Part shown: positions 49,144 to 64,000 of the stretch, one piece after another | How positions within the stretch are numbered: the stretch's first letter is position 1 | Layout of the letters: each line of letters starts with the position of its first letter | DNA from: Chloroflexota bacterium | Lineage (GTDB): Bacteria > Chloroflexota > UBA11872 > VXNJ01 | Length of the DNA stretch: 64,000 nt | Direction of reading: 5' to 3' | NCBI GenBank assembly: GCA_965261345.1 | Contig: OZ253449.1 | Location: forward strand, 1,056,001-1,120,000 | Position numbers and translations under genes: made by a program | Notes under the pieces: generated by a model | The model's database searches: none | Told to the model about the DNA's origin: nothing | What the model saw: only the letters and a program-made list of their open reading frames with translations

Positions 49144-50229
49144 ATGAGCAACACTTTCGGGACCGCCCTAAGGATCACGACCTGGGGCGAATCACACGGG
49201 GAGGCGATCGGAGCAGTCATCGACGGTTGCCCGCCGCGGCTGGCGCTCTCGCCGGCCGACATCCAACCCGATCTCGACCGGCGCCGACCGGGTCAGAGCA
49301 GCATCACCACCCAGCGTCGCGAAGCCGATCAAGCCGAAATTCTCTCGGGAGTATTTGACGGGCTGACCCTGGGCACCCCGATTTCGATCCTCGTTCGCAA
49401 CGCCGACGCCCGTGGCAAGGACTACGAGTACATGCGCCGACTGTACCGCCCCTCGCACGCCGACTACACCTACCAGGCCAAGTACGGCATACGCAATTGG
49501 CGCGGCGGCGGTCGCGCCTCGGCCCGCGAGACCATTGGACGCGTTGCCGCCGGCGCGGTCGCCCGCAAATTGCTCGACCAGGCCTTCGGAACCGAGATCG
49601 TTGCGTTCGTAAAGCGCGTTGCCGAAATCGAGGCGCCGGATTGCACCGCCACTGTCAACCGGGCCCTGGTTGACGCCAGCCCCACCCGGGTGCCCGACCC
49701 GGTATCGGCGGCGGCCATCTTTGATCGCATCGACCGGGCCCGCCGCGCCGGGGACTCGCTGGGCGGAGTCGTCGAATTCGTATGCCGCAACGTCCCGCCC
49801 GGCCTGGGTGAACCGGTATTTGGCAAGCTGGATGGCGAGCTGGCCCTGGCCATGCTGTCGCTGCCGGCTGCCAAGGGGTTTGAGATCGGTTCCGGATTTG
49901 CCGGTACCTACCTGTCCGGATCAACCCATAACGACGAGTTCTACATGGATGGCCAGCGAGTGCGCACGCGTACCAATCGCTCGGGCGGAATCCAGGGCGG
50001 GATCTCCAACGGCGAGGCAATCGTCGGCCGGGTCGCCTTCAAACCCACCGCCACAATCCTCAAACCCCAACTGACGGTCGATGAAGACGGCGGCGCGGTC
50101 GAATTCGGCGGGCGCGGTCGCCACGACCCATGCGTGCTGCCGCGGGCGGTTCCAATCGTCGAGGCAATGTGCGCCTTGGTCCTGTGCGATCAGGCTCTGC
50201 GCCACCAAGCCCAGAACGACTTTCTGTAA
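49144..50229 (+). CDS. aroC: Chorismate synthase
   Basis: [36 protein letters not shown]. Confidence 0.97.
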
Positions 50230-51525
50230 GTGACTGACGAGTCCGGGGCGAGGGCGGCCTACCGCCAGCGTGGCCCGGTCGCCTCGCTGATGCTCTTCCG
50301 CCTCAATCTCTATTGGTTGGGGCTTTCGGTGCTCTGGGGAGGTCTCTCGATCGTCTACCTGCCCGACCGGGTCGAGGCCCTGGTCGGCCCCGACATCAAG
50401 GGCACGATGTTGGGGCTCATCACCGCGGTGGGAGTGACCGCGGCCATCGCCGTGCAACCGCTGGCCGGTGGGCTTTCCGACCGGGCCTGGTCGCGGTGGG
50501 GACGGCGGCGGCCGATGATGCTGGCCGGGGCATTGGCGACCTCGGTCTTCATCTTGCTGCTCTCGCTAACCGCCAGCTACGCCGCCCTGTTGGCGCTGAT
50601 CCTGTGCGCGCAGATCTCGGAGAACACATCACGGGGGGCATACAAGGGGGTTTTGCCAGATCTGGTCGGGATCACCCAGATGTCCCGGGCCTCGTCGGTG
50701 AACGGAATTTTCAACATCTCAGGGGTGGCAATCGGCGCCGCCATTGCTGGCGTCATGCTCGACGCCGGTGTGGTCTGGGGGTTCCTGATCGTCGGGGCGC
50801 TCACCCTGGCGCTTTCGGCGATCGCGTCCTTTGCGCTGATTCCGGCCGGCCCGCTCTTTCCGGCCGGCCATCAGCCGCGGCTGCTAACCGAATTGGGCCA
50901 GGTCGTATCCCAGACCCGCGCCCACCCCGGTTTCGTGCGGGTGATCATCTCGCGCCTGGTATTTTTCGGGGCGGTCCTGGCATCCGACAACACCCTGCTG
51001 TACAACCTGCGCGATCGGCTGGGAATTGACAACCCCGGACAGGCGACCTCGGTACTCTTGGGGATCCTGCTCATCAGCGCGGTCCTGGTGGCCTGGCCGG
51101 CCGGAATGTTCGGTGATAGGTTCGGCCGCAAAAAAGTCGTTTACGCGGCCTGCGGGCTGGGGGTGATCGCTTCGCTGAGCGCTGCTTTCATAGTCAGCTT
51201 TGGCGGGATGGTGGTCGCGGTCTCACTGCTGGGAATGGCTCTGGGGATGTTCACTGCCGGTGATTGGGCCTTGTTAGTCGATAAGTTGCCCAAGCCCGAT
51301 AGCGCCGGCCTCTACCTGGGACTGGCCAACTTCGCCGGCGCCGGCGGGGATGCGCTGGGTACCCTCTGGGCCGGGATCGCGCTTGACCTTGGCAATCGCG
51401 TCGGACACCTGTGGGGGTTTAGCGCGGTCTACCTGATCATGGGCGCCCTTATGGCCCTGGCCGCGTTCATCCTGCGGCCGCTGCAGGACGAAGTGGCGGT
51501 CCTGGCGGTTGACCCGGCCGGCTGA
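50230..51525 (+). CDS. MFS transporter
   Basis: About 12 hydrophobic segments, GGLSDR...GRRRP and GDRFGRK motif A. Confidence 0.85.
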   Translation: MTDESGARAAYRQRGPVASLMLFRLNLYWLGLSVLWGGLSIVYLPDRVEALVGPDIKGTMLGLITAVGVTAAIAVQPLAGGLSDRAWSRWGRRRPMMLAGALATSVFILLLSLTASYAALLALILCAQISENTSRGAYKGVLPDLVGITQMSRASSVNGIFNISGVAIGAAIAGVMLDAGVVWGFLIVGALTLALSAIASFALIPAGPLFPAGHQPRLLTELGQVVSQTRAHPGFVRVIISRLVFFGAVLASDNTLLYNLRDRLGIDNPGQATSVLLGILLISAVLVAWPAGMFGDRFGRKKVVYAACGLGVIASLSAAFIVSFGGMVVAVSLLGMALGMFTAGDWALLVDKLPKPDSAGLYLGLANFAGAGGDALGTLWAGIALDLGNRVGHLWGFSAVYLIMGALMALAAFILRPLQDEVAVLAVDPAG

Positions 51526-51547
51526 ATTTAGACGGCGCCTTTTTGAT

Positions 51548-51769
51548 CTAACGGCGGCCGGTCTCCAGATAGTCGAGCGCCTTGGCGTAACTGTGTTTGG
51601 CCAAAAAATGCGCGAGCTGGCGGTCCGGCTGACGCTGGGCCAGCGTCGCCACCTGCTCCATTGCCATCCGCAAAGGCCCGGCGGAATCGGTTTTGCCATC
51701 TCCCAGTTGCTCGGTCAGCTTGGCGATCGACCTAAGCGCGAGGGTGATTTCTTCGGTCAGATCAGTCAA
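51548..51769 (-). CDS. Small hypothetical protein
   Basis: 73 aa, start overlaps the M20 stop; ..QLAHFLAKHSYAKALDYL. Confidence 0.55.
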   Translation of the reverse strand: MTDLTEEITLALRSIAKLTEQLGDGKTDSAGPLRMAMEQVATLAQRQPDRQLAHFLAKHSYAKALDYLETGRR

Positions 51770-52899
51770 TGAGGCATCCCTTGCGCGTACCGCCGTACGA
51801 CATCTTCATAGAGGTTGACACAAGCTGCGACCTGCCCGAGCTCGACGTATTCACGGGCCGAGTGCGCCTGGGCGATGTCGCCCGGCCCCAGGACCACGAA
51901 ATCCAGTCCCCGAGGCGCATAGGCGGCAGCGTCGGTGCTGTAGGGGACCCCGATCGGTTCGACCTGGCCGGCCGGTTGGCAGGCCCGCATCGCCGCCCGC
52001 ACGATGGGCGCGGCCGGATCCGATTCCACCCCCGGCTCGGCGGCGTAGGGATCCTCGACCAGGATCGCCGGGTTGGCGGCCAGCAGGTCGCGGATCGTCC
52101 GATGGACCGCCATCGGGTCCTCGCCGGGCAGCATTCGCCGGTCGACCATTGCCCGACAGCTGGCTGGCACCACGTTGACCTGGACTCCGCCGCTGATAGT
52201 TGAAACCGTCAATTTGGCCTCGCCGCACAGTCCGTGCGGATGCGCCGGCATTATCTGATCGGGCAACGTCCGAAGGTCGGCAATGGCATCTAACATCGCA
52301 TAGATGGCGTTGCTGCCCAGTTCGGGGTTGGCGGTGTGGGCGGACTTCCCGGACGCGGTCAACCCAAAGCGCAGTATTCCCTTTTGCGCGATAACCGGCG
52401 CCAGGCCGGTGGGTTCACCGACGATGACCGCATCCGCGGAGACATCGGCGGCCAGGTGGTGCGCCCCGCGTTTTCTATATTCCTCGTCAACCACTCCGGC
52501 CAGGATCACGTTGACCGGCGGTGGGTCGGCGACCAGGCGCTCCAGCATCAGCAGGGCCGCGGCCATGGCTCCCTTAACGTCGCAGGCGCCGCGGCCGTAG
52601 AGACGTTGGCCCTCGCGTACCGGACGGGCACTACCCAGCTCTCCCTCCTGCGGTACGGTATCGAGATGGATGTCAAAAAGCAGGGTGTTGCGATGCCCGC
52701 CGTCAAGCGCGAGCAGAACGTTCTTCCGGCCGTCAACTACCAACTGGCGGGTTACCGCGAGCCCAATGCGGGCACCAAATCCGGCGACAAAGTCGCCGTA
52801 ATCGTTCTCGCCCGCCCGCCCGGCGGGCATATCGGGATTAACCGATTCGATTGCAATCAGTTGGCTGAGCAACTCGGCGGCGCGCTCACCGTCATTCAT
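51766..52899 (-). CDS. M20-family metallopeptidase/deacylase (ArgE/DapE-like)
   Basis: HLDTVP, GRGACDVKG, DEE, GEPT, GPGDIAQAH. Confidence 0.9.
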   Translation of the reverse strand: MNDGERAAELLSQLIAIESVNPDMPAGRAGENDYGDFVAGFGARIGLAVTRQLVVDGRKNVLLALDGGHRNTLLFDIHLDTVPQEGELGSARPVREGQRLYGRGACDVKGAMAAALLMLERLVADPPPVNVILAGVVDEEYRKRGAHHLAADVSADAVIVGEPTGLAPVIAQKGILRFGLTASGKSAHTANPELGSNAIYAMLDAIADLRTLPDQIMPAHPHGLCGEAKLTVSTISGGVQVNVVPASCRAMVDRRMLPGEDPMAVHRTIRDLLAANPAILVEDPYAAEPGVESDPAAPIVRAAMRACQPAGQVEPIGVPYSTDAAAYAPRGLDFVVLGPGDIAQAHSAREYVELGQVAACVNLYEDVVRRYAQGMPH

Positions 52900-52977
52900 A
52901 TTTGGAAATCCGCGGACTCGGCTGCAACATGCGGGCTTGGGCACCCAAGCCCTAGTTTGACCGGGCCGCCAAACCTA

Positions 52978-55833
<2,856 letters not shown>

Positions 55834-55903
55834 TCAATTCTTAGCTAAAAATTCCAAATACAAGCACAGCCAAACCTATTCAGTGAGATCAGAAACCACT
55901 CTG

Positions 55904-55929
55904 GAATTGCATGAAATTTCATGCAATTC
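55904..55929. promoter_or_regulatory. Perfect 26-bp palindrome upstream of nrdA (putative operator)
   Basis: GAATTGCATGAAA-TTTCATGCAATTC. Confidence 0.5.
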
Positions 55930-56038
55930 GGAGGATCATTTTGGCGACACCGTGTAATACGGAGTCTAACGATATATCATAAATTCGCATCGACCAAGCG
56001 CAATTGGATGGAGTTTTGTAATAAATGTCCACGCCGCC

Positions 56039-56054
56039 ACACCATATGTTGTGG
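56039..56054. promoter_or_regulatory. NrdR box candidate
   Basis: ACACCATATGTTGTGG resembles the consensus acaCwAtATaTwGtgt; lies upstream of nrdA. Confidence 0.65.
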
Positions 56055-56264
56055 TGATCGATAAATTTATAGGACCGCTGATTGGGCTGAGATTACGCTT
56101 TATTCACTCAAAAAAGGCACTGGATCGCCGCTCATTGAGCCGCGTCCACCAATTCACTGGAAATCGCAAGCTTGCCGTCCCACTTACGGATTCCGATGAC
56201 ACGATTTACATTCGCCTTACAAACCCCTATATGAAGCTGCGAAATACGCCAGTGCGACCTTTGT

Positions 56265-56645
56265 TCAGCTGACCGATTTTCGACCGGCAAACCCCTCTTG
56301 CGGATAGTGCCAATAGGTAATGTCGGGCTCGCCCAGGCGATAACACCAACAAACGTCGCGATCGGCTCTGCGGCCAGGGAAGTCGATGATTCCCTCATCT
56401 AGATCGCGAACCAACACTCCCTCAGCAGCGAGTTCAACCAGCAGATCGCCGACCGCTTGCAACAACTCGGGCAGACCCTTGGCCGGGCTGTCATCGCCAG
56501 AGAGACCTTCAATGGCCCGACCCCAAGCACGTAAATCGGCGCGGTGTCGGGCGATCTGGTCCAGGCGCTCGATCGTTGCCGGGAGCGCCGCGCGGGCCTC
56601 GGCCAGGCTGTAAACCCGGTCGCGGTCACCTGGCTTTCTCGGCAA
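56265..56645 (-). CDS. DUF2203-family protein
   Basis: YSLAEARAALP, GVLVRDLDEGIIDFP, WCYRLGEPDITYWH...GFAGRK. Confidence 0.85.
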   Translation of the reverse strand: MPRKPGDRDRVYSLAEARAALPATIERLDQIARHRADLRAWGRAIEGLSGDDSPAKGLPELLQAVGDLLVELAAEGVLVRDLDEGIIDFPGRRADRDVCWCYRLGEPDITYWHYPQEGFAGRKSVS

Positions 56646-56657
56646 CTTGCTAGTCAG

Positions 56658-57731
56658 CTATTCGTCGTCGTCGGGCGAGGACTTGCCGCCGCCGGCGAAC
56701 TTTGGAGGCTGGCGGTTCCAAGGGTTCCAGCCGCCCTTGTCGGCGATCATCATCTCGTCGGCGACAAGGCGTTGGAAGGCCGCATCGGATATCGCCGCGA
56801 CCTCGGCGAGGAGTTCATCCGACAGCTTCCACTCGGCTGCCCGGGCGGCGTCGTTAACCTCCGCGGGGGTTCGGAATCCAACCAGCGCGGTGGTAACGAC
56901 CCGGTGTGAGAGCACCCATGCCAGCCCCAGATCGGGCAGGGTGTGGCCCTCGCGTTCGGCAATCGCTCGCAACTCGTCCTGGGTCTGCACGTTCAGCGGG
57001 AAATGTTTTTTGCGATCAAAGAACGGCATCCCGAAGGCGTGCCCCGAATCTCGCCAATCCCAGGAATCAAACTCATGGTCGGCGGTCATGTTGCCGGCCA
57101 GCAGGCCATGGGCAAGCGAACCGTAGCTCATGATGCCAACCGCGTTTTGCTCGCACCATGGCATCACGTCGCGCTCGATCCGGCGCTCCAGCATCGAATA
57201 ACCCATCTGGTTGGCGACCAGTTTTACGTGCTTGGAGCATTCGTCCAGCATCTCCGGCATGAAATTGGAGACCCCGATGTAGCGGATCTTGCCGGCTTTC
57301 TGTAGTTCTTCCAGGGCCCGCATCGTCTGCTCAAACGGCGTATCGACGTCCGGCCAGTGGATCAGCAGCAGGTCGATGCGGTCGGTCTGCAGGTTTTTCA
57401 GGCTCTGTTCGCAGGATTCGAGCACGTGAGCGCGGGTGCCATTTCGCTCCATCCGTTTTTCGGCATCGTTCCAGGCGATCCCGCATTTGGTAACTATGAT
57501 CACCTGGTCACGGATCGGTTTCAGCGCTTCCCCCATGACCCGCTCGGAGTGTCCCAGTCCGTAACCGGCCGCGTTGTCAAAGCAGGTAACTCCCAGGTCG
57601 AATGCCCGCATCACCGCAGCCTGGCCCTCGCCATCGTCGACCGCCCCGTATTGGGTGCCCCCCATTGGCCAGCCGCCAAAGCCGACGACCGACACCTCTA
57701 GGTCGGAATCGCCAAACTTGCGATATTCCAT
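56658..57731 (-). CDS. Aldo/keto reductase
   Basis: FDNAAGYGLGHSE, TKCG, DLLLIHWPD, GKIRYIGVSNF. Confidence 0.9.
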   Translation of the reverse strand: MEYRKFGDSDLEVSVVGFGGWPMGGTQYGAVDDGEGQAAVMRAFDLGVTCFDNAAGYGLGHSERVMGEALKPIRDQVIIVTKCGIAWNDAEKRMERNGTRAHVLESCEQSLKNLQTDRIDLLLIHWPDVDTPFEQTMRALEELQKAGKIRYIGVSNFMPEMLDECSKHVKLVANQMGYSMLERRIERDVMPWCEQNAVGIMSYGSLAHGLLAGNMTADHEFDSWDWRDSGHAFGMPFFDRKKHFPLNVQTQDELRAIAEREGHTLPDLGLAWVLSHRVVTTALVGFRTPAEVNDAARAAEWKLSDELLAEVAAISDAAFQRLVADEMMIADKGGWNPWNRQPPKFAGGGKSSPDDDE

Positions 57732-57867
57732 TGGTACCACCATTCCTTGCGGGCAGTTGCCCAATAACCAAAGCCCACGGGCGTTGAAACTCCTTGCCGA
57801 TTATTGACAATCCGGCCGCCGGGCCGGCCCGGCGCGGCCCCATTGCGCGGCCAGAATCGCGCGGGCC

Positions 57868-58428
57868 ATGATCGCGTTCTGGTTCAAGCTCGCCGCCGCC
57901 ACTGTGGCCGTTGCGCTGCTTTTGGCAGTCGTCTATCTGGTTTATCTTGCCTCGGTAGCCGGCCTGGTCCAGGTCCCGGCCCTTGCCGGAGTATCCGGCG
58001 AGAGCGCCGCCGCCCTGGGTGATTCCGGGGCTACCGCCACGCCGGCTTCGTTCACCCGGGTGCTGGAGGCCTCGGCGGTGGTCGAGAGCCCCCAGGGTTG
58101 GACCGATATCGGCATCTCAGCGGTGGCGTTCAATCATTACGTGGCCGCTAGCGGCCGGGCGAGCCCGCAACTTGAATGGGCGCGGGCGCGGGTGGCCGGT
58201 GCCAGCGTGGCGGTCGAGGGCGAGCTTCGTGGGCACCTAAACGTCCCTTTCGCCGGCCATTTACAAACCAGCGTCGAAGGCCAGGAATTGATCCTGCATC
58301 TGGCAGTTGAACGATTCGGCGTCCTGCCGCTCCCGCAGCTCCTGTTCGGCGACGGCGTACAGGTGCGCGTTCCCGCCAGCCGGTTCCTGCTCTCACTGCT
58401 CGGCCTCGGCCGGGCGGCGGTGGGGTAG
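57868..58428 (+). CDS. Hypothetical membrane-anchored protein
   Basis: N-terminal TM helix; ORF fills the gap between genes. Confidence 0.55.
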   Translation: MIAFWFKLAAATVAVALLLAVVYLVYLASVAGLVQVPALAGVSGESAAALGDSGATATPASFTRVLEASAVVESPQGWTDIGISAVAFNHYVAASGRASPQLEWARARVAGASVAVEGELRGHLNVPFAGHLQTSVEGQELILHLAVERFGVLPLPQLLFGDGVQVRVPASRFLLSLLGLGRAAVG

Positions 58429-58429
58429 C

Positions 58430-59425
58430 TTAAACCGGGTGCTGGTCGGACCGCTTGAGCCAGTTGACGCTGGTGGCCTTGGTCCCGCGGACCAGGCGGC
58501 GCACCTCGGCCCGGCGGGCAGTCGGCAGATGCTGTTTTTCCAGCCAGGCCCGCGAAGCTACGTACTTGGTCATTGCCACCTCGATCGGCAGGCGCGAATC
58601 CGGAAATTGCGCATAGAAATCAAGTAGTTTCTCACGCTGGATTGTCAGGGTCGACAGCGCCGTTATCGCCTGCACGGTGGCCGGGCGGGCGGTTTGCCCC
58701 AGCAGGGCCAGCTCGCCAAAATGGTCGCTTTCGTCCAGCTCGTGATATCGCGTCCGTGGTCGGCCCTGGCGCCGGTCATAGCTGACCACATCGAGGAGCG
58801 CCCGACCACGCCGGATATAGTGCAGGTCGACGCCATAGTCGCCCTGCCGGAATACGAACCGGCCGGCTGGAAAGTGGCCCCAGGCAAATCTTTGTGCCAG
58901 CGACTCAAGCTCGTTGGCCGACAGATGCGAGAAATAGTCCAGTTTGCGCAGATAGGCAGTCAACACGGTTCGTAGGTACGACTCGTTTAGCGCCCGGACA
59001 AGCTCGGATTCCTGTCCGAGCGGGCCCACCAAGCGCGACAGATCCAGCACCAGGATTTCACTGCCCGTTTCGGTGACCGCCAGGATCGGATCCGGATGTC
59101 CGATCGCACTTTCGAAATTTCCAAATACCGCAAGCTCTCCGACCACCCGGCCGCGCCGCTCGCGCTCATCGGGGTGCGAGGGCGTCGAAATCCGCACCTT
59201 GCCGGTCGCCACCACGTAGAGACTGTGATCGCCGATCCCCGGTTCGGTGATGACGGTGTTGGCCGGCGAGACCAGCAAGGTGCCGCGGCGCGCCAGTTGA
59301 CGCCGCAAGTTCGGCGGCAGCGAATCGAATATCTCGATCTCCGCCAGCGCCTCTTCAAACCTTCCGGTGCGAATCTTCCAACCCAGTGCCCGGACGGCGT
59401 AGGAGAGCGAGTCAATCAGCCCCAA
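58430..59425 (-). CDS. Tandem cyclic-nucleotide-binding domain protein
   Basis: Domain 1: IFDSLP..ITEPG..SLYVVATGKVRI..GELAV; domain 2: YFSHLS..VFRQGDYG..LHYIRRG..FGELALL...RPATV. Confidence 0.85.
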   Translation of the reverse strand: MGLIDSLSYAVRALGWKIRTGRFEEALAEIEIFDSLPPNLRRQLARRGTLLVSPANTVITEPGIGDHSLYVVATGKVRISTPSHPDERERRGRVVGELAVFGNFESAIGHPDPILAVTETGSEILVLDLSRLVGPLGQESELVRALNESYLRTVLTAYLRKLDYFSHLSANELESLAQRFAWGHFPAGRFVFRQGDYGVDLHYIRRGRALLDVVSYDRRQGRPRTRYHELDESDHFGELALLGQTARPATVQAITALSTLTIQREKLLDFYAQFPDSRLPIEVAMTKYVASRAWLEKQHLPTARRAEVRRLVRGTKATSVNWLKRSDQHPV

Positions 59426-59442
59426 AAACTCACACTCCTCTT

Positions 59443-60999
59443 CTAAGGCTCTTCTATGGCGCGGTCGGTCGGTTCAACGTCCTCGTCTGGTCCTCCCGCC
59501 GGCGGCAGCGCCCGCAGGAAATCGCCGATCTCGTCAGCGAATTCGCTTGACTGGTCATCGTAGCACTGGAACGGGTCGGCAATGCTTAGAACCTTCCCGT
59601 TTACGGCGATCGATTCCCAGTCCAGCACATACGGCACCAGATCCCAGACCCCGGCTGCGGCCACCTCCCGCCAACCGTCAATGTAGGAATAGACGCGGTA
59701 GAGGCGACCTTCCCAAAGTGCGTAATCTGATAGTCCGTGGCGCAATTCGGACCAATCGACGTGTTCGGCCGCGTCAGCCTTAGCCAGCGCCCGCAGGACC
59801 TTGGCGCGGGCATGGGCGCGGGTGTCCAATGGCGGCTCGGAAACCGCCCGCTGGGCCACCGGGGTCGGCAACAGGAAGCGCATCCGGGAATGCTCGCGCA
59901 GCGCCGTAAATACGCTCTGGCGGGGGTCGATGATGTGGTATGCCTGATCCACCTTGAGCAGATCACGGTCGCTCCACCCGAGGGAGCTGCCGTCGGCAAA
60001 TTCGCTAAGCACCTTCTTTTTGGAAACCCAGTCCAAATGGCCATCTAGCGTCATTGGATCAGATTCGAGCTGATCTAGGACCTGTTCCCAGTTCTCAAGG
60101 GTCCATGCGGTATCGGCATCTCTGCCCGCAAACCGCCGGGTGGCCTCGTTGAGGTATTGGCGCTGCACGTCAACCGCCGCAATCGATCCGTAGCGCTCCT
60201 CCGAGACAGTCCAGTCGCCCACCGTGTTGGCGGCAATTTGGCGCAGATCGCGCACCGGCGCTTCAAGCTGGAGCGATTGCGACCAACCGGCGTCGAGCAA
60301 CTGGGCCACTAGGGCGGTGGTGCCGATCTTGAGGGCAGTGGCAAATTCAGACCGATTGCAGTCGCCGATGATCACGTGTAGGCGCGGCCGGGAACCCAAC
60401 GGCTCATCGCGCAAGTTGATGATCGGGCGGCCGCCGTAGCGCACCCGCCGTGAAACGCCCACATCGGCGAATCCGGCGCGCTGGCTCAGTTGGTATTGCC
60501 CGGGCCGGCCGCGCCCGGAAAAACTGATCAGGCCGGCACCGGCAAAGATCTGGCGGGTCACCAGAAAGGGCATTAGCCCGGAAACTACCGTCTCGTCGTC
60601 GGGACGGCGGCGCATCGAATAGCTCTCATGGTACCCGAAGGTGTTGCCGCAGTAGTCGGTGTTGCTCTTGACAAAGTAGATCGGGTCCTGCCGCTGCAGG
60701 CGTGCAAGTGTTTCCAGCAGAATCGGTTCGATCGCCAGCTCATGGGCCACCAGAGCGGCCAGGCTGCGGCATTCGGCAGTGGCGTATTCAAGGTGCCCTG
60801 AGTCGATCAGCAGGCGCCCGCCGTTGAACAGGAACCCGCCGTTGGCCGGGGTTTCGCCCCACTCGCGCGGCGCCGGGTCGACGACCCCGTAGCGGTATCC
60901 GTCAAAGATGTCGGTCTTGACCAATGCCGCCGCCAGCTCCGGTTCCACCGCACCGGTTACTCCGAATTCGATCTCGGTGCCGAACAGGGCATCTTGCAT
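59443..60999 (-). CDS. pafA: Pup/UBact ligase, PafA family
   Basis: FGTEIEFG, NGGFLFNGGRLLIDSGHLEYATAEC, NTFGYHESY, PFLVTRQIFAGAG, INLRDEP, RLHVIIGDCNRSE, DTRA. Confidence 0.85.
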   Translation of the reverse strand: MQDALFGTEIEFGVTGAVEPELAAALVKTDIFDGYRYGVVDPAPREWGETPANGGFLFNGGRLLIDSGHLEYATAECRSLAALVAHELAIEPILLETLARLQRQDPIYFVKSNTDYCGNTFGYHESYSMRRRPDDETVVSGLMPFLVTRQIFAGAGLISFSGRGRPGQYQLSQRAGFADVGVSRRVRYGGRPIINLRDEPLGSRPRLHVIIGDCNRSEFATALKIGTTALVAQLLDAGWSQSLQLEAPVRDLRQIAANTVGDWTVSEERYGSIAAVDVQRQYLNEATRRFAGRDADTAWTLENWEQVLDQLESDPMTLDGHLDWVSKKKVLSEFADGSSLGWSDRDLLKVDQAYHIIDPRQSVFTALREHSRMRFLLPTPVAQRAVSEPPLDTRAHARAKVLRALAKADAAEHVDWSELRHGLSDYALWEGRLYRVYSYIDGWREVAAAGVWDLVPYVLDWESIAVNGKVLSIADPFQCYDDQSSEFADEIGDFLRALPPAGGPDEDVEPTDRAIEEP

Positions 61000-61005
61000 G
61001 CGGGA

Positions 61006-61197
61006 CTACTGCCCTCCCGGTTGCGGCGTGGGGTTGGGAATCTCACGAATGATTCGCCGCACCCTCTCGCCTAGCTCCTCTTCCTCGCTCTTGTCCGGCG
61101 AATGGGCGGGGTCCTCGGTCTCGGTTTCCGGTTTACTCGGAGCTTCAGTTTCCAACCCGATGCGGACGCTCAACATGGCGCGTTGCTCTGCTTTCAA
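61006..61197 (-). CDS. Pup/UBact-like small protein modifier (63 aa, C-terminal GGQ)
   Basis: GGAGGA RBS 9 nt before TTG 61197; acidic low-complexity body; ends ..PTPQPGGQ*; lies between dop and pafA. Confidence 0.85.
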   Translation of the reverse strand: MKAEQRAMLSVRIGLETEAPSKPETETEDPAHSPDKSEEEELGERVRRIIREIPNPTPQPGGQ

Positions 61198-61255
61198 TTT
61201 GCCCCATCCTCCAACGCCGGACGGATACCATGGCACCCGTCATTAGATAACATTT

Positions 61256-62800
61256 TCAACCAACGACAGCTTCGGACCCCATAAGCGCCCCGACTAGTTC
61301 GTCCACGTCGGCGGCCGCCTCAACCTTTTCGGCCAGGGCTGCAATAGTTCCCGAATGGACCTGCGAGAGGTCCAGGTGAAACCGCCGGCCGGAAATTTCA
61401 AGCGTCGCCGAATCCCATTCCATCTCCTTGACGTGGCCGCCAAAGTGCGAGATAAGCCTTCCGCGCAGGCGCGCCCGCGTGTCGCCGGGCGGTTGTTTGA
61501 GGTGGGCCCGGGCTTCTGTGGGGTCAAGCAGGGTGCCGATTCGACCCTCGGCCACCAGCTGGTCATAGATCGAATACCTTGGGTCAAGGTAGTGGTAGGC
61601 GACGTCTAAGCGCCGCAGTGTTTCGGCCGGCAGGCCTGCCTGGCCGGGTGCGACTTGCTCAATCAGCTGCAATTTGGCGCACCAGTCGAGGAAATCACCG
61701 GCACCCTCCGGATCGCGACGTAGCAGATCGAGCAGGCGTCGCCACTCGGCGGCAATCCAGTCGCGCTCCGGTCCGCGCAGATCGGCTTCCTCAATCGCCT
61801 GCAGGTAGATTTCCAGCACGTCGAGCATCCCCAACTGGCCGCGCGAGGTCGGCACCATGGCGCAAAGCGCGGGGTCGCGTGAAAACGTCCGGATCGCCTG
61901 CAGCGGGTCGTTGAGGGCGATTCGGAAGTCGTGCCCCTGTTCGACTAGGTCCAGCACCAGCGAGGTCATTCCCACCTTGAGCGCCGTCTGTAGCTGGCTG
62001 CGGTTGGCATCGCCGCAGATCACGTGCATCCGGCGATAGGCCCGGCGGTCGGAATGCGGCTCGTCGCGGGTATTGAAAATCGGACGCTTTGCAGTCGTAT
62101 TTATCCCGGTTATCTGTTCAAAAAAATCGGCCCGCTGGGAAATCTGAAAAGTTACCGCCGGGTCGGCGAAGCGGCCCTCGCTGCCGGCCTTACCGGCACC
62201 GGTCAGGGCGATTCGCGAGACCAGGAAGGGCACAGTCTGGGCGATTAAGAAATCCATCCCGACCGACCGGTTCAAAAGGTAGTTTTCATGGGTTCCGTAT
62301 GAACGGCCGTGATAGTCGGTGTTGTTCTTGACCAATAGCACCTCGTCGGTCGAGCGGGCGTTGCGCTGGCGCTGACAGGCAAGTAGGAGTTGTTCGCCGG
62401 CGGCGTCCTGGCGGGCGACCTCGAATGCCGAACGGGTGGCATCGGTGCAGTACTCGGGATGGTTGTGGTCGTTGTAAAAGCGCGCGCCGTTGGGCAGGAT
62501 CGTATCGGCGATCAGCTCGGCCCGGGAGAGCCTGGCACTCTCGCCCGCCACCGCGGCCAGATCGTGCGGGTCGCGGGCCAGGCGGTGACGCCGGCCGAAG
62601 AAATCCAGGCGGCCGTCCTCGCCCGAATAATCCCAGCCGCGATGAATCGGACGCAGGCAGAGCGAGCGGACCAAGGTCGAGGCCAGGAACCCAAAATCCA
62701 CTGGCTCGGCAAAACCCTGGCAGATCATCCCGTATTCGGTCTCGATTCCCATTGGGCGCAGCCCGCCGAGTTGACCGTTTGGCAGCTGGAAGGCGGTCAC
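61256..62800 (-). CDS. dop: Dop-family deamidase/depupylase
   Basis: MGIETEYG, WDYSGE Dop-loop-like insert, NGARFYNDHNHPEY, KNNTDYHGRSYGTHENY, SQRADFF, RPIFNTRDEPH, HVICGDAN. Confidence 0.88.
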   Translation of the reverse strand: MTAFQLPNGQLGGLRPMGIETEYGMICQGFAEPVDFGFLASTLVRSLCLRPIHRGWDYSGEDGRLDFFGRRHRLARDPHDLAAVAGESARLSRAELIADTILPNGARFYNDHNHPEYCTDATRSAFEVARQDAAGEQLLLACQRQRNARSTDEVLLVKNNTDYHGRSYGTHENYLLNRSVGMDFLIAQTVPFLVSRIALTGAGKAGSEGRFADPAVTFQISQRADFFEQITGINTTAKRPIFNTRDEPHSDRRAYRRMHVICGDANRSQLQTALKVGMTSLVLDLVEQGHDFRIALNDPLQAIRTFSRDPALCAMVPTSRGQLGMLDVLEIYLQAIEEADLRGPERDWIAAEWRRLLDLLRRDPEGAGDFLDWCAKLQLIEQVAPGQAGLPAETLRRLDVAYHYLDPRYSIYDQLVAEGRIGTLLDPTEARAHLKQPPGDTRARLRGRLISHFGGHVKEMEWDSATLEISGRRFHLDLSQVHSGTIAALAEKVEAAADVDELVGALMGSEAVVG

Positions 62801-63549
62801 CCGGCGACCTCGGCCAGCTCAAGCAGATGCGCCCGCGGGCGACAGCGCAGTCGCAGCGGAATTCCGGACCAGCCGAGGCCAATGCTTACGTGGCAGAGCC
62901 GGCCACCCAGGACCATCACCCCATCGGCGGCCGGCAATCGATTGCGGGTGTTGGTCGGGGTCGGCAACATCGGGATGTTGAGTTGGCCCCCGTGGGTATG
63001 GCCCGAAAGGGCCAGGTCGCAGCGGTAATCGCCCACATCAAATACACCGTCCGGTGAATGGGTCAACAGAAGGGTGCCGAGGCCCTGGTCTGAACCGGCG
63101 TAGGCACTTGCGATATCGTGGCGTGCGCGATGCGGGTCATCGGTGCCGATCAGGTTCAGCCTCCGGTCGCCAATCCGTACTTGGACCGACTCGTTTACCA
63201 GCAACCGTACCCCGCTGGCGGCCAAGACGTTGACAACTTGCCCCGGGTCCAGCAGCAGATCGTGGTTGCCGAGGCAGGCGAATGCCCCCAGGCGCGGCCT
63301 GATTCGACCAAGCGCCCGGGCGGTTTCGGCCAGGGCCGGGCCATTTTCAGCGATGTCGCCGGTAACGCACAGGAGATCGCAGGCGACCGGGGCCAAGGAC
63401 CGCAGAGCGCGCGACGGGAAATCGTCGGCGCTACGGGCATGAATGTCTGAGACATGCAAGATCGAAATCCCGGCCAACCCCGAACCATTGGGGAGCGGCA
63501 GGAGGATTTTCTCCAGGATATTCCCGGCCCCCGGACTTGTTTGGTTCAT
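62797..63549 (-). CDS. Calcineurin-like metallophosphoesterase (YkuE/YaeI-like)
   Basis: SDIH, TGD, GNHD, HSPD, GHTHGGQ; stop overlaps the dop GTG start. Confidence 0.88.
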   Translation of the reverse strand: MNQTSPGAGNILEKILLPLPNGSGLAGISILHVSDIHARSADDFPSRALRSLAPVACDLLCVTGDIAENGPALAETARALGRIRPRLGAFACLGNHDLLLDPGQVVNVLAASGVRLLVNESVQVRIGDRRLNLIGTDDPHRARHDIASAYAGSDQGLGTLLLTHSPDGVFDVGDYRCDLALSGHTHGGQLNIPMLPTPTNTRNRLPAADGVMVLGGRLCHVSIGLGWSGIPLRLRCRPRAHLLELAEVAG

Positions 63550-63599
63550 ATTTGTCTATTGAATTGATCGACCCGATTACCTAGAAAGTTTGACCGCAT

Positions 63600-64000
63600 A
63601 TGGACTCCGGCCACATCTCCAAGATCGGTATCCTCACCGGCGGGGGCGATTGCTGTGGGCTCAACGCTGCAATCCGTGCGGTCGTCCTGCTGGCACATCG
63701 TCGCTCGTGGAGCGTGCGCGGCTACCTAGACGGCTGGGCCGGGGCGGTGGCCAACCATTGGCGTGAGCTAACTCCGGACGCGGTGGCTGAGATCATCTAC
63801 CAGGGTGGGACTATGCTGGGCACCTCGCGCACCGATCCGCGTTCCGACGCGAGCGCATATGCCCGGGTCGAGGCGCTCTTCGCCGATGGCGGGATCGACG
63901 CCCTGGTTGCCATCGGCGGCGACGATACGCTATCGGTGGCGGCTCAACTGGCCGCCGATGGCAACCCGGTCGTCGGCGTTCCCAAGACGATGGACAACGA
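63600..64000 (+). CDS. pfkA: 6-phosphofructokinase, probably PPi-dependent (runs off the window)
   Basis: IGILTGGGDCCGLNAAIRAVV, GGTMLGTSR, IGGDDT, VGVPKTMDN. Confidence 0.9.
   Translation, partial: MDSGHISKIGILTGGGDCCGLNAAIRAVVLLAHRRSWSVRGYLDGWAGAVANHWRELTPDAVAEIIYQGGTMLGTSRTDPRSDASAYARVEALFADGGIDALVAIGGDDTLSVAAQLAADGNPVVGVPKTMDN

Follow-up and report, generated by a model that had tools for sequence, protein, structure and literature searches.

The window analysed here, a 64,000-nucleotide stretch from a Chloroflexota bacterium (contig OZ253449.1, positions 1,056,001 to 1,120,000 of the forward strand; GTDB lineage Chloroflexota, UBA11872, VXNJ01), carries on its minus strand a compact dop-tag-pafA locus, in which a gene for a short protein ending in Gly-Gly-Gln lies between the genes for a Dop-like and a PafA-like enzyme. 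We consider it probable that these three genes form a self-contained and reversible tagging system of the Pup/UBact type, found in one class-level group of Chloroflexota, whose tag would act as a non-proteasomal regulatory mark; its predicted components are an amidase resembling Dop, a disordered tag ~45-63 residues long and a ligase resembling PafA. A conjugation module of this type without a proteasome or ARC/Mpa had been proposed in an earlier reading made from the letters alone (the sequence-only reading), and searches of the whole genome and of its relatives supported this proposal. The five co-oriented minus-strand open reading frames (ORFs) on which that reading was based were all recovered, with the same boundaries (positions are those of the window; aa, amino acids):

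62797-63549, minus strand: metallophosphoesterase (MPE) gene, YaeI/LpxG-like, 250 aa (PF00149, 40.6 bits)
61256-62800, minus strand: dop-like gene (gene 1), 514 aa from a GTG start (PF03136, 416.6 bits)
61006-61236, minus strand: tag gene, longest ORF of 76 aa, product ending in PGGQ (no match to Pfam or NCBIfam models)
59443-60999, minus strand: pafA-like gene (gene 2), 518 aa (PF03136, 342.3 bits)
58430-59425, minus strand: gene for a tandem cyclic nucleotide monophosphate (cNMP)-binding protein, 331 aa (PF00027 in two stretches, 74 bits)

The genome contained exactly two matches to PF03136, which were genes 1 and 2 (416.6 and 342.3 bits; gathering cut-off 25), and no further Pup-ligase gene was found in it. 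Gene 1 scored 363 bits with the NCBIfam model for Dop and 266 bits with that for PafA, aligned from end to end with the Dop of Acidothermus (5lrt/4b0r, 282 bits, as compared with 168 bits for PafA structures), and presented the active-site stretch DH.HPEY. It also carried an insertion with a WDY motif, missing from gene 2, which aligned with the Dop-loop of actinobacterial and UBact-type Dop; this loop of ~40 residues is described as not being present in PafA (PMC7947786, section 6, and PMC12288473). When the UBact-type Dop of a metagenome locus, L097, was used as a tblastn query against the genome, gene 1 was the best match (285 bits), followed by gene 2 (233 bits). Judged by the structure alignment, the Dop-loop and the best match to UBact-type Dop, gene 1 is assigned as Dop. 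In gene 2, the catalytic Asp was followed by EYATA, a motif listed as specific for PafA (Table 1 of PMC7947786), GVS was found in the alpha-loop region, and both a 13-residue insert and the sequence RDEPL (in place of RDEPH) were common to gene 2 and the PafA of UBact systems. The UBact-type PafA of L097 had its best tblastn match in gene 2 (279 bits; gene 1, 191 bits). Both enzymes keep the catalytic motifs of their family, and both scored below the NCBIfam equivalog cut-offs (Dop, 363 against 492.3 bits; PafA, 260.8 against 551.3 bits; models TIGR03686 and TIGR03688).

The PafA/Dop tree that the sequence-only reading had called for was built from 77 sequences, comprising 15 pairs from Chloroflexota, 14 sequences each of Dop and PafA from Actinomycetota, and 19 homologues from other phyla, the latter chosen among the 120 matches listed. 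Each of the Chloroflexota paralogues formed a single clade (100%), and the gene 2 clade was sister to 13 sequences from other phyla with an SH-aLRT support of 98%, without being nested among them, which places the ligase beside the PafA of the UBact side and outside the actinobacterial PafA clade. Eighty metagenome loci of those other-phylum homologues were fetched, and a UBact ORF together with a dop-pafA spacing of ~1.9-2.3 kb was present in 25 of the 27 loci that held both enzymes. The gene order in L097 was Mpa-Dop-UBact(PF20513)-PrcB-PrcA-PafA, and in this one annotated locus the dop-pafA spacing was filled by the two proteasome subunit genes. Since the sister sequences sit in UBact loci, gene 2 groups with the PafA of the UBact system. 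A comparison of the ligase with named genome contigs, in which the window's own clade was excluded, recovered only seven actinobacterial PafA loci (Phycicoccus and related), at 35% identity.

Three starts were considered for the tag gene: a GTG giving 76 aa, a TTG at 61197 giving 63 aa, with GGAGGA 9 nt upstream, and an ATG at 61176 giving 56 aa, the TTG or the ATG being the likelier start. The C-terminus of the window tag reads ...RVRRIIREIPNPTPQPGGQ. Loci were fetched from 27 relatives (20 of the 36 relatives in the order with matches, and seven of the nine genomes of a third family, f3), and a small homologous ORF was present between both enzyme genes in all 27 of them. When three near-duplicates among the 28 tags were dropped and the other 25 were aligned, 17 columns proved invariant, including L.E, RIIRE and P.PTPQPGG, within an overall pattern of EAPxKPxExP, an acidic stretch, and then L.E..RIIRE.P.PTPQPGG(Q/E). 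The proline-rich EAPxKPxExP is thus a second motif, which lies further toward the N-terminus, away from the end predicted to bind the ligase. The invariant residues were written with two to four different codons, and over the last 22 codons the 378 pairs of tags showed means of 9.6 synonymous and 3.7 non-synonymous codon differences; this codon variety and the synonymous excess indicate that the small ORF encodes a protein under purifying selection and is not a chance ORF.

The tag ended in GGQ in 12 of the 28 loci, those of this genus included, and in GGE in the other 16. Dop was kept in all 16 GGE loci, which argues for removal of the tag and not for deamidation alone. The last Arg or Lys of the window tag is 13 residues away from its end, so that trypsin would leave a 12-residue remnant, EIPNPTPQPGGE, on the modified lysine instead of GGE; the usual GGE-on-lysine signature of mass spectrometry would not be applicable to this tag family.

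The Pup model PF05639 matched neither the 25 tag sequences nor the genome at E<=10, and the UBact model PF20513 matched neither the window tag nor the 25 aligned tags, whereas the same model gave the L097 tag 74.5 bits. Comparisons by hhalign of the tag with 12 canonical Pups (E 0.0045, probability 7.8%) and with 20 UBacts (E 0.081) were not significant; as a yardstick, Pup against UBact scored no better (E 0.084), so that hhalign neither shows nor excludes a distant common origin. A word-indexed profile search with the tag returned 153 clusters, all the named ones being annotated as 'hypothetical protein', and their records were mostly from Chloroflexi/Chloroflexota, with one labelled Gammaproteobacteria and one labelled Actinobacteria. 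The names carried by homologues of the tag and of the ligase thus point to Chloroflexota as the phylum. Among the 120 tag homologues listed, 119 ended in GG[EQ], the exception being frameshift-like, and 117 ended in PTPQPGG[EQ]. HMMER, run exhaustively over 1.84 billion representatives, gave only 24 proteins at E<=0.001, and the six new ones all ended in PQPGGE. On sequence grounds, the tag is assigned to a third family, distinct from Pup and UBact. One protein from the HMMER search, P0243 (2246 aa), had three stretches that matched the tag profile at positions 33-47, which may reflect low-complexity similarity or a repeated RIIRE-like motif.

A model of the complex between ligase and tag reached an ipSAE of 0.86, while the best of three controls reached 0.00; among reference cases, 58 of 80 solved complexes and 2 of 110 mismatched pairs attained the mark applied to such models. 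The runs shared at least 72% of their contacts, with a partner pLDDT of at least 54. In the modelled contacts, residues 35-55 of the tag meet the ligase at its GhExE strand, its catalytic-Asp stretch and its helices 330-372, and the last 21 residues of the tag, which are conserved, are predicted to sit on the active-site face of the enzyme.

Sequencewise, each junction of the locus was as tight as had been described. The stop of the MPE gene overlaps the GTG start of dop (GTGA), with the caveat that homology to Dop starts at residue 15 and an in-frame ATG is found at residue 17; a start at this ATG would leave a gap of 45 bases between MPE and dop rather than an overlap. Between the stop of the tag gene and the ATG of pafA there are six bases. 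The ribosome-binding site of pafA, GGGAGGG, is made of the tag's own invariant Gly-Gly codons (window 61006-61020, 60999), so that the end of the tag and the initiation of ligase translation are physically coupled. The pafA stop is followed by the TTG start of the cNMP gene after 17 bases, which contain AAGAGGAG. Scanning of 57500-64000 for promoters and terminators yielded counts at or under the shuffled expectation, and an Rfam scan of 50000-64000 yielded no match.

Adjacent copies of both enzyme genes were found in 37 of the 41 genomes of the order. In a sample of the phylum, the enzymes were present in 31 of 301 genomes and in three of 68 families (f1, 5/5 genomes; f2, 16/18; f3, 9/9). The dop-pafA spacing was too short for proteasome genes in all the order loci (n = 20/20). 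The spacer between tag and pafA measured ~250-850 bases in f3 (L068:7317-7956, L071:6579-7256 and L070), and ~10-30 bases in the other two families. Four of the seven f3 loci also had a 294-aa ORF on the same strand, 430-660 bases upstream of dop (L068:4109-4993, L069:3931-4815, L073:4260-5144 and L074:9001-9885), the L068 copy being a carbon-nitrogen hydrolase. A 1.7-Mb Actinomycetota genome (L093:6916-9966) presented dop, a canonical Pup ending in GGE, and pafA directly adjacent to each other.

The sequence-only reading had pointed out that prcAB and arc/mpa were absent from the window, and none of them was found there or elsewhere in the genome. The genome-wide search that it had proposed as a check, extended to prcA, prcB, arc and extra copies of pup, dop or pafA, found none of these, and a module without proteasome was thus not refuted. 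In the genome, which is a single contig of 2,393,548 bases, PF00227 (20S) had 0 matches, and tblastn with the UBact-type PrcA, PrcB and UBact of L097 had none. The best score of the Mpa model TIGR03689 was 143.9 bits, as compared with a cut-off of 504.75, and was confined to the AAA core of a frame of 654 aa, and the best score of the proteasomal-ATPase OB domain PF17758 was 12.7 bits, as compared with 23.4. Positive controls worked: the Mpa search detected C. glutamicum, and PF00227 was detected in 10 of 14 genomes. No Mpa was recovered at E<=1e-60 from the 41 genomes of the order (this one counted), and a search of the 41 relatives with the N-terminal 250 residues of UBact-type Mpa, run without a positive control, gave 0 matches. 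All five f3 genomes searched showed only FtsH-like hits of ~150 bits to the Mpa model, and none of them matched PF00227 (0/5).

By homology, the cycle would start with Dop deamidating the terminal Gln of the tag to Glu, a step that would have to come first in this genome, where the tag is Gln-ended. PafA would then phosphorylate the gamma-carboxylate of the tag with ATP and join the tag to target lysines, and Dop would strip it off again, making the mark reversible. The mark would be read through the conserved N-terminal motif, and its most likely use would be non-proteasomal reversible regulation; as neither Mpa/ARC nor 20S was found, the tag probably has a use other than that of a proteasome degradation signal. 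The system is akin to the UBact-proteasome operon, and the unfoldase and proteasome genes would either have been lost or never have been there.

Several points weigh against this interpretation. Midpoint rooting of the tree parts the Dop side from the PafA side, and the support of the deep branch was 16%. Gene 2 was slightly nearer to actinobacterial Dop than to PafA, both with PDB sequences (216.6 vs 184.4 bits) and with NCBIfam models (266 bits for Dop vs 261 for PafA, 260.8 before rounding), its putative role as ligase being drawn from the signatures and from the matches with UBact-type proteins. As structures of Pup-PafA and Pup-Dop complexes have been solved (4bjr, 7oxv and others), the passing of the complex model may partly be fold memory. 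The marker completeness of the genome was 95.4%, and one weak PF00227 hit (22-46 bits), divergent, beta-like and unlinked to the locus, was seen in seven of the 41 order genomes. Two of these hits were examined (L037:1099-1866 and L038:1492-2241), and both were lone beta-like proteins with homology from residue 2 and with no match to the PrcA or PrcB equivalogs, one of them sitting in G005, a family member without dop and pafA. The absence of partners was read from profile and BLAST searches, by which a very divergent or unrelated reader could be missed. Production of the tag and its conjugation to proteins are predictions, and, since another AAA+ protease could read the tag, a non-degradative fate of the tagged proteins can be called plausible only.

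The main alternative follows from this last point, and we regard it as possible, if unlikely: the tag would still be a degradation signal, read by FtsH, Lon or a Clp unfoldase. Every relative that has been studied uses its tag to recruit an AAA+ unfoldase (PMC8223512 and PMC12288473). The present genome does contain AAA+ genes, for example the FtsH-like frame of 654 aa and another frame of 665 aa, and EAPxKPxExP, which stands apart from the end predicted to bind the ligase, might serve as a receptor site. However, an AAA+ or protease gene was linked to the locus in none of the 28 loci (0/28). Pup binds the coiled coil of Mpa by a long helix, and the proline-rich N-terminal part of the Chloroflexota tag argues against a long helix of this Pup-Mpa type.

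A second alternative, which we consider doubtful, is that all five genes constitute one module, in which tagging is gated by the cNMP protein as the sensor of a cyclic nucleotide, and the MPE is responsible for turnover of the signal. The coupling to cyclic-nucleotide sensing and turnover suggested by the sequence-only reading was not supported in that form, as no class III or CYTH cyclase was found, the MPE was YaeI/LpxG-like and both flanking genes were limited to certain lineages; nor was the five-gene order conserved, the MPE and cNMP genes not being co-conserved with dop and pafA across families. The MPE gene was within the fetched span in all ten f1 loci, adjoining dop in eight of them, and in none of the f2 (0/10) or f3 (0/7) loci. 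It travels with a phosphofructokinase gene on its other side; 17 of the 18 relatives in the family have it, among them G007, a genome with neither dop nor pafA. By coordinates, a distance of ~2.2 kb separates it from dop in three of five genus members; one locus of this kind was fetched, and there a 653-aa gene of the S9 prolyl-oligopeptidase family (L050:3078-5039) lies between MPE and dop. The only NCBIfam hits of the MPE at E<=0.01 were YaeI (115 bits, cut-off 188) and LpxG (78 bits), with no cNMP phosphodiesterase model among them, and its substrate is not readable from sequence.

In favor of a single module, the cNMP protein was the only PF00027 protein in the genome, and the 17-base gap after pafA holds a good ribosome-binding site. 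Its orthologue abuts pafA in the three same-genus loci fetched, an adjacency limited to this genus, and in two more genus members it lies, by coordinates, ~320 bases past the pafA match. Genera g4 and g5 had weaker homologues located 2-2.3 kb downstream, after CBS-pair and citrate-transporter genes, the g4 copy having one in-frame stop. The cNMP gene was also absent from G005 and G007, the family members without dop and pafA, although for G005 this co-absence could be due to a single deletion or an assembly gap. The second cNMP domain keeps an FGE...RPA stretch, which we take to be a phosphate-binding-cassette-like motif, whereas the first domain lacks the cassette Arg; the protein also had a weak NCBIfam hit to the cNMP domain of Pat (35.4 bits). 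For M. tuberculosis, CoaX with pantothenate is reported to be a ligand-bound regulator of Dop. Against a single module, the cNMP gene was near the locus in six of ten f1 loci and in none of the f2 (0/10) or f3 (0/7) loci. Four of the five g3 genomes yielded no copy of it, and in the fifth (G015) it was reduced to a 78-aa remnant with two stops, while dop-tag-pafA was intact despite this loss or decay. The genome had no match to class III (PF00211) or CYTH cyclases, classes I and II being outside this search. In our reading, the MPE and cNMP genes have long been neighbours by synteny in a single family and are not parts of the conserved system; the cNMP protein, the sole cNMP-domain protein of the genome, may be a genus-level accessory factor. 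A more elaborate proposal, in which a third, Chloroflexota-specific tag family is written onto lysines by the PafA-like enzyme and removed by the Dop-like one, free of any unfoldase or protease, with the N-terminal motif recruiting a reader and, in this genus, the genome's only CNB-fold protein, as sensor of a ligand other than cAMP or cGMP, gating the ligase or the eraser, seems to us improbable when taken as a whole.

Directly downstream of pafA, and on the same strand, a CBS-pair protein of 163-178 aa, a small-ligand-binding module like the cNMP protein, is encoded in genera g3, g4 and g5:

L054:8984-9475, same strand as pafA: CBS-pair gene
L055:9286-9822, same strand as pafA: CBS-pair gene
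L057:4271-4798, same strand as pafA: CBS-pair gene

A small-ligand sensor after pafA as a general rule was considered and rejected, the neighbours of the locus in f2 and f3 being unrelated: these were FabA-like, MarR, cysteinyl-tRNA synthetase, CN-hydrolase and ornithine cyclodeaminase genes, as well as a gene for a 318-aa protein with weak glycosidase-like hits.

Two further alternatives carry little weight. It is very unlikely that the small ORF encodes something other than a protein tag, with the enzymes acting on some other gamma-glutamyl substrate or the product being a modified peptide: similarity to Pup and UBact was not detectable and conjugation is a prediction, but the ORF occupies the same position between dop and pafA as in the Pup and UBact operons, its terminal GG(Q/E) is invariant and alternates between Q and E as in Pup, the complex model brings its last 21 residues to the active-site face, and the catalytic motifs are kept in both enzymes. 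That Mpa and proteasome genes simply escaped detection, owing to a gap in the assembly or to extreme divergence, and form an ordinary split pathway is hardly credible in spite of the completeness value and the weak PF00227 hits in 7/41 relatives, given a one-contig genome, four kinds of query that were all negative (Pfam, NCBIfam, the OB-domain model and UBact-type tblastn), the same result in 41 order and five f3 genomes, many of them single-contig, with positive controls, and the nature of the weak hits, single beta-like genes outside the PrcA/PrcB equivalogs, one of them in a genome without dop and pafA.

The phyla for which Dop and PafA have been reported are Actinobacteria, Nitrospirae, NC10, Armatimonadetes, Verrucomicrobia, Nitrospinae, Firmicutes as well as Proteobacteria, and Planctomycetes have single-copy Dop/PafA homologues (PMC7947786). 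The word 'Chloroflexi' does not occur in the main text of that paper, whose supplement, with 2,689 family sequences, might include members from Chloroflexota. A literature search for pupylation or PafA in Chloroflexi or Chloroflexota found no paper, most subscription journals being outside its reach, and the terms 'pupylation' and 'UBact' do not occur in the available part of PMC7203096.

Pupylation is usually described as targeting to the proteasome, and the one well-studied case without proteasome, Corynebacterium, still needs ARC. If our interpretation is true, the present lineage keeps a writer, an eraser and a tag under strong selection, with neither unfoldase nor proteasome found, meaning that this chemistry can serve another purpose, and it would offer a clean system for asking what a bacterial ubiquitin-like mark does alone. 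The locus would also bear on origins, as tagging may have preceded its coupling to the proteasome or may have been kept after the proteasome was lost. In addition, ~150 database clusters of 'hypothetical protein' could be named as a tag family.

Among the known systems close to that of the Chloroflexota is the UBact-proteasome system of Gram-negative phyla, reportedly first described by Lehmann et al. in 2017. The two have in common a pair of Dop and PafA paralogues with the tag gene right after dop, a ligase that is sister to the UBact-system PafA (98% SH-aLRT) with best matches of Dop to Dop and of PafA to PafA, and a short disordered tag that ends in G(Q/E) and has a basic helix equally far from its end. 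They differ in that the Chloroflexota tag ends in PTPQPGG(Q/E) and is not matched by PF20513, whereas UBact ends in RYRQRTG(Q/E), and in that the UBact order is Mpa-Dop-UBact-PrcB-PrcA-PafA, whereas here the tag gene abuts pafA, and no Mpa, PrcB or PrcA was found in locus or genome. With the actinobacterial Pup-proteasome system (mpa, dop, pup, prcB, prcA, pafA) it shares the enzyme family, the chemistry presumed from it, the Dop-loop and a tag end that alternates by lineage between GGQ and GGE; unlike that system, its enzymes score below the cut-offs, its tag is not matched by PF05639, and Mpa and 20S were not found.

The locus also resembles that of Corynebacterium glutamicum (arc-dop-pup-pafA) in having no 20S genes and a compact dop-pup-pafA arrangement. 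In that species, proteasome-less pupylation is non-degradative, and ARC disassembles tagged ferritin (PMC8223512 and PMC12288473). Unlike Corynebacterium, which keeps ARC/Mpa, neither this genome nor the 46 relatives tested yielded one. The concept of a ligand sensor set over lysine modification recalls the mycobacterial cAMP-regulated acetyltransferase Pat and the control of Dop by CoaX/pantothenate; unlike in these cases, the sensor here is a separate protein without an effector domain, no class III or CYTH cyclase was found and the linkage is confined to one genus. Set beside these systems, what appears to be new in the Chloroflexota is a minimal dop-tag-pafA locus, with no unfoldase or proteasome found, that combines a third tag family with enzymes related to those of the UBact system.

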